Source: an uncultured bacterium
GTDB lineage: Bacteria > Patescibacteriota > Minisyncoccia > Phycocordibacterales > CAIRYW01
Direction: 5' to 3'
Length of the DNA stretch: 64,000 bases
NCBI GenBank assembly: GCA_963766885.1
Contig: CAVYBO010000002.1
Location: 464,606-528,605, forward strand
Numbering within the stretch: position 1 is the first letter of the stretch; each line of letters starts with the position of its first letter. A program made the position numbers and the translations under genes. A model generated the notes under the pieces. It made no database searches. It was not told the origin of the DNA and was given only the letters and a program-made list of their open reading frames with translations. Shown here piece after piece: positions 38,217 through 40,970 of this stretch.

Positions 38217-38366
38217 TCAATTATATCACCGGAAAATCAATTACCCATCCCAACCCAAAAATTATTTTTCAAATCCTCTGAAAACTTGTAAGCATTGGCA
38301 TGAGAAAGAACACCTAGATAGGATTGTAAGGAGGATTCCATTGTATTTTTTGAAATGGTTCCGTTT

Positions 38367-39323
<957 letters not shown>

Positions 39324-39674
39324 ATGAATGATTTTGATATACCGATTTTTAAAAAATCCTACAATCTGTACAAAGATTTCTACGAGATTCGTTTGTCCGT
39401 TCCCAAACAGGATAGATACACTCTCTGGCAGAAATGCGAAAGCACTTTGATTGAGATTATCGAGCGTATTCTTCTGGCAAGTCAGCAGTCTAAAATGGAG
39501 AAACTTCCTACTCTGGAGAGAACAAGCGTCAAATTGAATTTCCTCCGAGTTTGTATCCGTCTGATGAAAGACACCAAAGCAATCGATACCAAAAAATATA
39601 TTGTCATCGAAGCGCATCTTGATGAAATTGGAAAAATGCTTGGAGGATGGATAAAGTCCACCAAGGAGCGATAA
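39324..39674 (+). CDS. avd: DGR accessory variability determinant (Avd), encoded on the strand opposite to the RT and TR
   Basis: 116 aa, about the size of the Avd four-helix bundle. The C-terminal HLDEIGKMLGGWIKSTKER closely parallels the Bordetella phage BPP-1 bAvd C-terminus (AEVGRILGSWIARVNRKG). Its start ATG (39324) abuts the RT start codon, forming the divergent junction CAT|ATG. Confidence 0.72.
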   Translation: MNDFDIPIFKKSYNLYKDFYEIRLSVPKQDRYTLWQKCESTLIEIIERILLASQQSKMEKLPTLERTSVKLNFLRVCIRLMKDTKAIDTKKYIVIEAHLDEIGKMLGGWIKSTKER

Positions 39675-39676
39675 CA

Positions 39677-39705
39677 GAAACTCCCACTGTAAAAGTGGGA
39701 GTTTC
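39677..39705. promoter_or_regulatory. perfect 11-bp stem-loop between avd and TR
   Basis: GAAACTCCCAC-TGTAAAA-GTGGGAGTTTC. It lies immediately 3' of avd on the plus strand and immediately 3' of TR on the minus-sense TR RNA. Confidence 0.45.
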
Positions 39706-39725
39706 TTCGGATAGAGTTGTGACTG

Positions 39726-39840
39726 CCGGGAGGCGGAGACACTGAGGTTGTCGTTGCGGTTGTTGTCCCAGTTGTTGTTGACGTTCAGACCCTTGGCATC
39801 GAAGTTGCCGAGGTTCACACGGTTGCCATTCGAGTCGAGA
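39726..39840 (-). repeat. DGR template repeat (TR), 115 bp, sense strand is minus
   Basis: Direct repeat of 40200..40314. All 18 mismatches are T on the plus strand, meaning A on the minus strand, in this copy. Its minus-sense translation is rich in AAC codons (NVNNNWDNNRNDN). Confidence 0.88.
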
Positions 39841-40118
39841 AATTGCTTTCTTCCGTCCGCGTCACTGAGATTTGAGGTTTACCATCTTTGCAGATCTATA
39901 TCCTCTCATCTCTGAATTTTATTTGGGAACAATTTTTTTCAAAATATTTCCACTAGAAAAAAGCAAGAAGTTCTCTCTATCCTTGTCGCACTCTGCCGTA
40001 ATCCTTGAACTACTGGCACTCTGGCGAATCTCAGGTGAGATATCCCGCGAACTTGAACCGTAACCCAAGTTGCATTAGCAAGATTTATAAATATTAACTG
40101 GTTGTATGTAAAAGACAA

Positions 40119-40152
40119 GAGCCTCCGGCAAAAAAATTTTGCGCGGAGGCTC
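40119..40152 (-). terminator. intrinsic terminator or GC hairpin downstream of the DGR target gene and VR
   Basis: 9-bp stem GAGCCTCCG/CGGAGGCTC. On the minus strand the stem is followed by TTGTCTTTT. It is 40 nt downstream of the target stop codon. Confidence 0.45.
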
Positions 40153-40190
40153 AAGGATTCAAGAGGGACAAGCCCTCTAGGGTTCAAGTT

Positions 40191-40970
40191 TCACTGCTTC
40201 CGGGAGGCGGAGACACCGAGGTTGTCGCGGCGGCTGCCGTCCCAGTCGTCGTCGACGAGCAGACCCCCGGCACCGAAGCCGCCGAGGATCACACGGTTGC
40301 CATCCGAGTCGAGATCAACGCAGCGAACGTAGACCTTCTCGAACAGACGCTCGCCGGTGGCGAGGAAGTGGCCGATGATGGTGTAGACCATCACTTGCGC
40401 CTTCGGCGTTTCCTCGTCTTTCGAGAGGAGAGCCTGCTGTTCGGTCCAGTTTTTGCTCGTTGAGTCGGCAACGGGTTCCTTGCGGACCAGTTGCCAGCCG
40501 ACTTCGCCTTTGTCCTTGGCGAACGATTCCTTGTTGTACCAGTCCTGGTTGTAGAACGGGCACTTGCTCTTGGCGATGCCACGGATGTCGAGGATCGAGA
40601 GTGGAAACACGGCGACGAGAATGTGCGTGTCCTTGCAGGACCGGAGCACTTCCTCGGAGAACGGAACTTCGGCCAGAGTGGCGATCTGCTGCTTCGAAGG
40701 GTTAACCCCAAAGTACTTGATTGCTTCCTCGATACCGAAGAAGTTCGCTCCCATGATTTCGCGGGCTTTGAGCCATTGCGGATTCAGGCTTGTGGATGAT
40801 TTGTCCGACAGCCAGAGATTGTCCACTGCAAATCCTGCGAGTCTAGTAAGATACTCCTGATCGATGTTGATACGTTCTGCTACTGCATCGGCGTGATCGC
40901 CGAGTGTAACCCAGAAGCGTTGTTGTGCGCCGTTTATTTCACCGGCTGGAACTTGAGTCCAATTTTTCAT
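40191..40970 (-). CDS. DGR target (variable) protein. The ORF is open up to a GTG at 41093, and the ATG at about 40970 is the preferred start.
   Basis: GC is about 52%. The C-terminal ...NRVILGGFGAGGLLVDDDWDGSRRDNLGVSASRKQ is encoded by the VR. There is no signal peptide. Confidence 0.68.
   Translation of the reverse strand: MKNWTQVPAGEINGAQQRFWVTLGDHADAVAERINIDQEYLTRLAGFAVDNLWLSDKSSTSLNPQWLKAREIMGANFFGIEEAIKYFGVNPSKQQIATLAEVPFSEEVLRSCKDTHILVAVFPLSILDIRGIAKSKCPFYNQDWYNKESFAKDKGEVGWQLVRKEPVADSTSKNWTEQQALLSKDEETPKAQVMVYTIIGHFLATGERLFEKVYVRCVDLDSDGNRVILGGFGAGGLLVDDDWDGSRRDNLGVSASRKQ
40200..40314 (-). repeat. DGR variable repeat (VR) forming the 3' end of the target gene
   Basis: 115 bp and 84% identical to the TR. 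Every one of the 18 differences falls at a TR adenine on the coding sense. It encodes the last 38 codons of the target ORF. Confidence 0.88.

Follow-up and report, generated by a model that had tools for sequence, protein, structure and literature searches.

We analyzed a 64,000-nt stretch of an uncultured patescibacterial genome (contig CAVYBO010000002.1 of assembly GCA_963766885.1, positions 464,606 to 528,605; hereafter the window) and found a locus with the parts of a diversity-generating retroelement (DGR). Read along the minus strand, a small target gene that carries a variable repeat (VR) at its C-terminal end is followed by a likely terminator, by a leader and the template repeat (TR), by avd on the opposite strand, and by a reverse transcriptase (RT) gene (Table 1). 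The flanking genes have housekeeping functions (recJ, pgk, and tpiA), and the element lies between recJ and pgk; the chromosomal site of its closest relative is between thrS and dnaE. The RT, avd, the target, and the VR each occur once in the window, and no further VR, target, or second DGR was found within it. We read the repeats as the TR and VR of a chromosomal DGR of the type specific to Patescibacteria, also known as the candidate phyla radiation (CPR), with a probability of about 0.93, the first part of the mechanism being drawn from the anatomy of the locus.

Table 1. Positions of the retroelement features in the window
Feature	Position	Strand	Description
Target gene	40191-40970	minus	259 aa, starts MKNWTQ; start chosen from the family alignment (homologues begin MKxWT, about 255 aa)
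VR	40197-40314	minus	Last 39 codons of the target (codons 220-258 of the 259-aa reading frame)
Putative homing segment of the VR	40200-40216	minus	GC-rich, adenine-free; equals TR 39726-39742
Hairpin AGAGGG-CTTGT-CCCTCT	40162-40178	minus	18 nt downstream of the VR
Stem-loop GAGCCTCCG...CGGAGGCTC then TTGTCTTTT	40119-40152	minus	Read from the sequence; position conserved in relatives
Structured noncoding leader	39841-40084	minus	244 nt, adjoining the 5' end of the TR; -10-like TAATAT ahead of it at 40096-40091
3' subdomain of the leader, RT-16-like	39841-39973	minus	Located by covariance model
TR	39723-39840	minus	32 minus-strand adenines; 356 nt downstream of the VR; noncoding
12-bp hairpin AGAAACTCCCAC-loop-GTGGGAGTTTCT	39676-39706		Separates the TR 3' end from the avd stop codon
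avd (accessory variability determinant)	39324-39674	plus	116 aa; strand opposite to TR, RT, and target
RT reading frame as assembled	38367-39323	minus	318 aa; RVT_1, E 2.4e-27
(GA)15 microsatellite	38735-38765	minus	31 nt, GAGA...G on the coding strand; encodes (ER)5; in frame
Two 1-nt deletions in A-runs	38382-38411	minus	A-runs 38406-38411 and 38382-38385; from DNA alignment with the sister locus L082 and protein alignment
Out-of-frame remnant of the RT C terminus, ...SLQSYLGVLSHANAYKFSEDLKNNFW...	38237-38381	minus	Reading frame 38237-38467 aligns with the C termini of full-length homologues

Repeat Pair and Retroelement Proteins

A repeat finder returned 39723-39840 and 40197-40314 as a pair of 118 nt with 84% identity, extending by 3 nt the homology given in a preliminary description of this DNA. 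That description, made by eye, had listed 18 differences between 39726-39840 and 40200-40314, all of them at a T of the 39.7-kb copy. Compared without gaps at an offset of 474, the two segments showed the same 18 mismatches, each at a plus-strand T (minus-strand A) of that copy, with the same sites and groupings (39743; 39754-5; 39760; 39763-4; 39773, 39776, 39779; 39784-5; 39793-4; 39799; 39805-6; 39814; 39830). Tabulation by strand confirmed that the segments are direct repeats and left no mismatch at a nonadenine TR position within the 115 nt. On the plus strand, the changes from TR to VR were 14 T>C, 2 T>G, and 2 T>A. The TR contains 32 minus-strand adenines in the 118-nt repeat (31 in the 115-nt segment), 18 of which are substituted in the VR; under a hypergeometric model, 18 random positions would all fall on adenines with P = 4.3e-13. 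The sole nonadenine difference lies at the extreme 3' edge of the repeat, where a plus-strand G at 39725 faces a T at 40199 (C in the TR and A in the VR on the minus strand). Because a difference of this kind is recurrent in related loci, we treat it as a feature of the boundary and not as a counterexample.

The effect of the changes on the encoded protein was then read from the coding strand. The earlier translation of the TR (...KGLNVNNNWDNNRNDNLSV...) proved correct, and the enrichment in AAC and AAT codons that it had pointed out amounts to 11 AAC and one AAT, with every adenine at codon position 1 or 2. The 18 substitutions alter 14 codons, hitting the first and second positions and never the third. 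The adenines of the TR are spread over 19 codons. Their full randomization would give the last 39 target residues about 10^19 possible protein sequences, and the risk of creating a stop codon is limited to a single codon (AAG).

Two explanations of the repeat pair that do without a retroelement can be weighed against these figures. Direct repeats a mere 474 nt apart could be an ordinary duplication, that is, a paralogous segment diverging by neutral point mutation with no reverse transcription involved. The mismatch spectrum already refutes this, 18 of the 18 internal differences sharing the same base in the same copy (P 4e-13). The confinement of the changes to codon positions 1 and 2, the adjacent RT and Avd genes, and the recurrence of the pattern in 50 related loci also speak against it; the chance that the repeats are a plain duplication is negligible. 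Equally far-fetched is adenine deamination, or another process with an A-to-G bias, that would have changed one copy with no retroelement involved. It would account for the 14 of 18 changes that are A>G, but the remaining four are transversions (A>T and A>C), which already contradict it. The pooled changes of related loci include 159 A>C and 215 A>T among 911, the VRs of a sister element show all three types, and the adenines are retained in the noncoding, RT-side copy, as expected of a DGR.

The proteins encoded beside the repeats agree with a DGR. RTs of the DGR lineage are defined in the established literature by an RVT_1 domain with a [LIV]GxxxSQ motif and a YxDD motif; the corresponding sequences here, GIPIGNLTSQ and YTDD, do not vary among the aligned homologues. 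The RT has thousands of patescibacterial homologues and is 58-84% identical to many RTs of Paceibacterota and Parcubacteria. Avd, which is found in most DGRs though not all, scores 85.6 bits with NCBIfam NF033474 DivGenRetAVD (equivalog cut-off 80) and 66.3 bits with Pfam bAvd PF22296 (cut-off 40). The identification of the 39.7-kb copy as the template stands on two grounds, the adenines being in that copy and the same copy adjoining avd and the RT gene. The A-to-N pattern had likewise been taken as the signature of a DGR, and the RT, Avd, a VR at the 3' end of a reading frame, and a noncoding TR beside avd and the RT gene are all present. Three points were absent from the preliminary description: The RT reading frame is frameshifted as assembled, avd lies on the opposite strand, and the layout is the standard one for CPR bacteria.

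The start codons of avd and the RT gene abut head to head (CAT/ATG at 39326-39321), and therefore each promoter must sit inside the coding sequence of the other gene. A promoter-like TTGAAA-17-TATTAT is found on the plus strand at 39268-39296, within the first RT codons and 28 nt before the avd ATG. To place the locus among its relatives, we scanned for related RTs, taking one genome per species, and obtained 80 loci, almost all labelled Patescibacteria, Paceibacterota, or Parcubacteria; the source names of homologues are Paceibacterota, Parcubacteria, or Nomurabacteria. An avd could be located in 76 of the related loci, and every one of them has it inverted just ahead of the RT start; this, together with the published B3 architecture, rules out a local inversion of avd in the window. 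A 483-aa open reading frame (38367-39818, minus) that runs through the TR, antisense avd, and RT was considered as an N-terminal extension of the RT or a TR-RT fusion and was rejected as a chance occurrence found at this locus only; the open stretch upstream of the RT start has a median of 14.5 codons in 76 related loci and reaches 110 in none.

Requiring that at least 80% of mismatches fall at TR adenines, we detected TR/VR pairs in 51 of 81 sequences scanned (the 80 loci and the window), the TR ending about 50 nt past the avd stop and the VR lying a few hundred nucleotides upstream. The VR of the window is typical of the clade, because its substituted fraction (56% of TR adenines vs. 55%) and its A>G share (78% vs. 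59%, from 911 substitutions in relatives) are in line with the clade averages. A sister element, present in three samples (L082, L083, and L084), has an RT 84% identical to that of the window, and the RT protein is the same in all three. Over 1.8 kb comprising the 3' part of the target, the VR, the spacer, the TR, and avd, its assemblies differ at two positions in the spacer and at 21 in the VR, of which 19 are TR adenines. All three types of adenine substitution occur in these VRs, and such VR-confined variation is natural evidence of the activity of elements of this kind.

VRs are known to be heterogeneous in populations, and one could suppose that the VR or TR of the window is an assembly artifact, a chimeric consensus or a collapsed mixture. 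A TR-like VR reading into antisense avd, the expected product of a VR/TR collapse, is indeed seen in one target homologue (P0074, described below). Against this, an independently built Logan contig from run ERR11630394 covers the target, VR, TR, and avd and matches the window at 100% identity over 1899 nt. The flanks of the two copies are distinct and typical of the family, and even a consensus VR would still imply a DGR. We consider an artifact very improbable.

Target Gene, Putative Homing Signals, and Leader RNA

The target protein is without a signal peptide or transmembrane segment by inspection, and searches gave no Pfam or NCBIfam match and, by profile, no PDB match. Its family is very large: Clustering at 50% identity gives 2964 clusters, close matches of about 255 aa exceed 1200, and the family alignment combines a conserved body with hypervariable C-terminal 40 residues. 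One homologue of 306 aa (P0074) has an asparagine-rich, TR-like C terminus that runs straight into antisense avd, probably reflecting a collapse of VR and TR in the assembly or a deletion between them.

The base composition of the target differs from that of its surroundings. GC content at third codon positions (GC3) is 0.68 in the target, and 0.87 in its VR, vs. 0.32-0.37 in host and neighboring genes and 0.36 in the RT. Across 44 related loci, the body of the target averages 53% GC vs. 41.5% in the rest of the locus and 37% in the RT. Depletion of adenine over the whole gene was ruled out as the cause, the coding strand having an A content of 0.26 and a T content of 0.19. The target genes thus consistently exceed in GC both their hosts and the RT and avd genes of the same element, for a reason other than adenine depletion.

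The last 21 nt of the VR before the boundary contain zero changes of the adenine type. The preliminary description had noted a GC-rich end identical in both copies and resembling the initiation of mutagenic homing (IMH) boundary of other DGRs; the 17-nt segment, GTGTCTCCGCCTCCCGG on the minus strand, is indeed identical in the two copies and occurs nowhere else in the window. Three to five nucleotides from the 3' end of the homology, a C in the TR facing A or G in the VR recurs in 15 related loci, and differences of the 39725/40199 type are candidates for the discriminator between donor and recipient, IMH* vs. IMH. The hairpin that follows the VR has covarying stems in relatives (GAGAG/CTCTT, GAGGA/TTCCTC, GAAGAA/TTCTTC) and has no counterpart after the TR. 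Judged by its sequence, the hairpin at 40162-40178 corresponds to the inverted repeat found after the IMH in characterized DGRs; about a third of DGRs have such an inverted repeat downstream of the IMH. The GC-rich 3' segment, the edge difference, and the VR-only hairpin would then fit, at the level of sequence, an IMH, an IMH*, and an inverted repeat, with a presumed role in homing. A CTTGA motif occurs three to four times around the post-VR hairpin (40145-40190, minus) and is conserved in related loci. Farther downstream, the stem-loop at 40119-40152 is likely the intrinsic terminator of the target gene; a scan with a terminator consensus made no call at this position.

Between that stem-loop and the TR lies a region that we propose to be the 5' domain of the template RNA. 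About 240 nt upstream of the TR are strongly conserved in relatives, beginning with a -10-like TAATAT/TATAAT followed by ATCTTGCTAATG; an open frame across the TR is not conserved. In an alignment of the leader from 27 loci, RNAalifold inferred 33 consensus pairs in six helices, 26 of the pairs with compensatory changes. The partners can pair in 96.7% of the alignment cells, vs. 76% in shuffled alignments and 38-57% in controls with slid partners, and cells with double changes number 225 vs. 76 in the shuffles. The leader of the window retains 31 of the 33 consensus pairs. A 12-bp long-range helix joins 39955-39966 with 39843-39854 and closes 2 nt before the first base of the TR.

We built a covariance model of the leader from 24 other loci, excluding the window. 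Run against the 64-kb window, it gave a single match, at 39841-39973 on the minus strand (127 bits, E 1.6e-28), and among held-out loci it matched 38 of 57, once each. All 37 plus-strand matches lie just 5' of the TR or of the place of the TR in the fixed layout; at one locus (L055), both the match and the TR are on the opposite strand. With Rfam's gathering thresholds applied, the window gave no family match, and neither did the leader regions of 15 relatives. An alignment of the Rfam family RT-16 (RF03019) to 39845-39965 reproduces the helices but scores 27.1 bits (E 0.04-0.06), its gathering score being 50, and none of 15 related loci reached that threshold either. The leader is likely a divergent RT-16-like element whose relationship to that family is distant, and we do not count it among the members. 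A LOOT RNA (Rfam RF03000) was found within 1-2 kb of the DGR at five of the 15 related loci scanned (L003, L004, L005, L014, and L058); there was none in the window.

On the other side of the TR, 49 of 51 loci have a strong hairpin in the first 55 nt, with a mean of -18.1 kcal/mol vs. -7.2 kcal/mol for shuffled sequences and with stem sequences that vary by locus. In many distant relatives, a T-run follows the hairpin on the RT strand; the copy in the window is symmetric, A-rich before and T-rich after. On the simplest reading, the TR RNA and the avd mRNA converge on the hairpin at 39676-39706, which probably acts as a two-way terminator of both; it is possibly part of the template RNA.

Reverse Transcriptase Integrity and the (GA)n Tract

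Several observations weigh against reading the repeats as those of a DGR of this type. The RT reading frame encodes 318 aa as assembled, short of the 349-357 aa of homologues, and its two deletions shift about 45 conserved C-terminal residues (SLQSYLGVLSHANAYK...) into another frame, down to 38237; of 79 related loci, 61 keep a full-length RT reading frame and about five have one that is clearly disrupted. Structure models of the target are too poor in the C-terminal half to establish a C-type lectin fold as the scaffold of the VR. A consensus scan placed no promoter above threshold for the TR RNA or the RT. Finally, the locus is represented by one assembly and the identical 1.9-kb Logan contig.

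The truncation bears on the present activity of the RT and not on the identity of the element. Whether the RT is active now is uncertain, the choice being between recent decay and homopolymer errors in the assembly; look-ups with the RT, RecJ, and the reading frame of the C-terminal remnant found no independent assembly covering the 3' end of the RT gene. If the deletions are real, the locus would be a relic, a DGR that diversified its VR in the past and whose RT is now a pseudogene, the TR/VR differences being fossil. Two frameshifting deletions in the 3' region of the gene, which reduce the reading frame to 318 aa from about 350, speak for this reading, as do the disrupted RTs among the relatives, which tell that decay occurs in the clade, and the intact recJ, pgk, and tpiA, contrary to pervasive indels in the assembly. 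Both deletions, on the other hand, fall in A-runs, the commonest site of assembly error. Any inactivation must also be recent, because there is no nonadenine difference between TR and VR over the 115 nt and because avd, the TR, the leader with its 31 of 33 pairs, and the hairpins are intact. We hold a relic to be a serious but minority possibility, clearly below even odds, and the repeats to be, in either case, those of a DGR.

The RT gene contains a further feature with a possible bearing on its activity. The (GA)15 tract is the only dinucleotide repeat of at least six units in the window, and at least six other loci carry GA tracts of 8-19.5 units at this place in the RT; (ER)n with n of at least 3 is encoded at that position in 20 of 120 close RT homologues. 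In one relative (L088), a (GA)14 tract accompanies an intact RT of 353 aa, and in loci from other samples that are 98.6-99.3% identical to it (L085-L087), (GA)15 goes with an RT split into 207 and 154 aa. A split RT allele was found in a second cluster as well (P0394). The frame-toggling length polymorphism is thus seen in relatives only, the tract of the window being in frame and known from a single allele. The co-occurrence in nature of intact and split alleles suggests that slippage of the (GA)n repeat can turn hypermutation on and off. A literature search returned no top-ranked match combining DGRs with repeat-mediated phase variation.

Proposed Mechanism and Comparison with Known Systems

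The anatomy of the locus suggests that a noncoding RNA of about 400 nt would start near 40084, carry the leader and TR, and end at the 39676-39706 hairpin. By analogy with established DGR biology, as worked out in Bordetella phage BPP-1, a complex of RT and Avd would copy the TR into cDNA and misread its adenines, and the cDNA would replace the VR, with the adenine-free, GC-rich 3' homology and the VR-only hairpin serving as guides. The outcome would be some 10^19 variants of the last 39 residues of an uncharacterized and apparently nonsecreted 259-aa protein. The adenine-specific TR/VR differences, the protein parts, the conserved RNA structure, and the VR-confined variation of the sister element were observed, and we infer the transcript ends, the priming mechanism, and any current activity.

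We go further only tentatively and at slightly less than even odds: In part of the clade, the window included, the long (GA)n tract at its fixed position in the RT may act as a slipped-strand switch that makes hypermutation phase-variable, and, separately, the template RNA of these B3-type elements may be organized unlike that of BPP-1, with an RT-16-like domain flush against the 5' end of the TR and not after its 3' end. Three points appear to go beyond the accessible parts of the published accounts, namely, the RNA domain abutting the TR, the (GA)n alleles of the RT, and the GC-rich targets. The first of these is a candidate for the recognition and delimitation of the template RNA in the commonest DGR architecture, one that is experimentally untouched.

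The tract recalls the phase-variable type III methyltransferase of Mycoplasma mycoides, which is described as having 12 AG repeats in its coding region (PMC3498834). In both cases, a long AG or GA tract lies within the reading frame and a change of one unit shifts the frame, and alleles of 14 and 15 units coexist in the RT relative. They differ in that the gene here is the RT of a DGR and that its putative switching is suggested by the alleles of relatives, the window having its tract in frame.

Among structured RNAs, Weinberg et al. (2017; PMC5737381) described the motifs RT-1 to RT-19 near RT genes as of unknown function; RT-10 was tied to the BPP-1 spacer and roles in DGRs were speculated for others. 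The leader shares with RT-16 (RF03019) an outer long-range helix, the AUAAAAUnCAG and GGUGA stretches, and an inner hairpin, all on the correct strand, and differs from it by an additional conserved 5' part of about 110 nt. A position of RT-16 flush against the 5' boundary of the TR is not stated in the accessible part of that paper.

The experimentally characterized prototype is BPP-1, with the order mtd-VR, avd, TR, and brt. The window element resembles it in the adenine-specific TR/VR differences, the AAC-rich codons, Avd, and an RT of the DGR type, and also in the GC-rich 3' segment common to TR and VR with a TR/VR difference nearby and in the hairpin after the VR only. The structured RNA, however, lies 5' of the TR in the window, whereas the spacer RNA of BPP-1 (Rfam RT-10; Weinberg et al. 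2017) is 3' of it, and the TR of the window is followed by only about 15 nt and the terminator hairpin. Unlike BPP-1, the element is chromosomal and not phage-borne and has a target unrelated to Mtd by sequence.

The closest match is with the DGRs of CPR bacteria. Wu et al. (2018; PMC5758913) found architecture B3, TR-(avd)-RT, in 90% of their CPR set, and Roux et al. (2021; PMC8144416) described a DGR clade 2 restricted to Patescibacteria, with targets lacking recognizable domains; the element fits this clade too, and we equate the clade with the CPR B3 type. The window has the same order of TR, reverse-strand avd, and RT in a patescibacterial genome. It agrees with these systems in gene order and strands, in the inverted avd abutting the RT start, in the TR about 50 nt past the avd stop, in the VR at the C terminus of a small protein with no recognizable domain or membrane segment, and in the adenine bias. 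It departs from them in the two RT frameshifts, the long (GA)15 tract, and an insertion site other than that of its closest relative. The TR/VR pair by itself therefore matters little, being one more among thousands of CPR DGRs, and the element is an ordinary addition to the well-populated B3 type.

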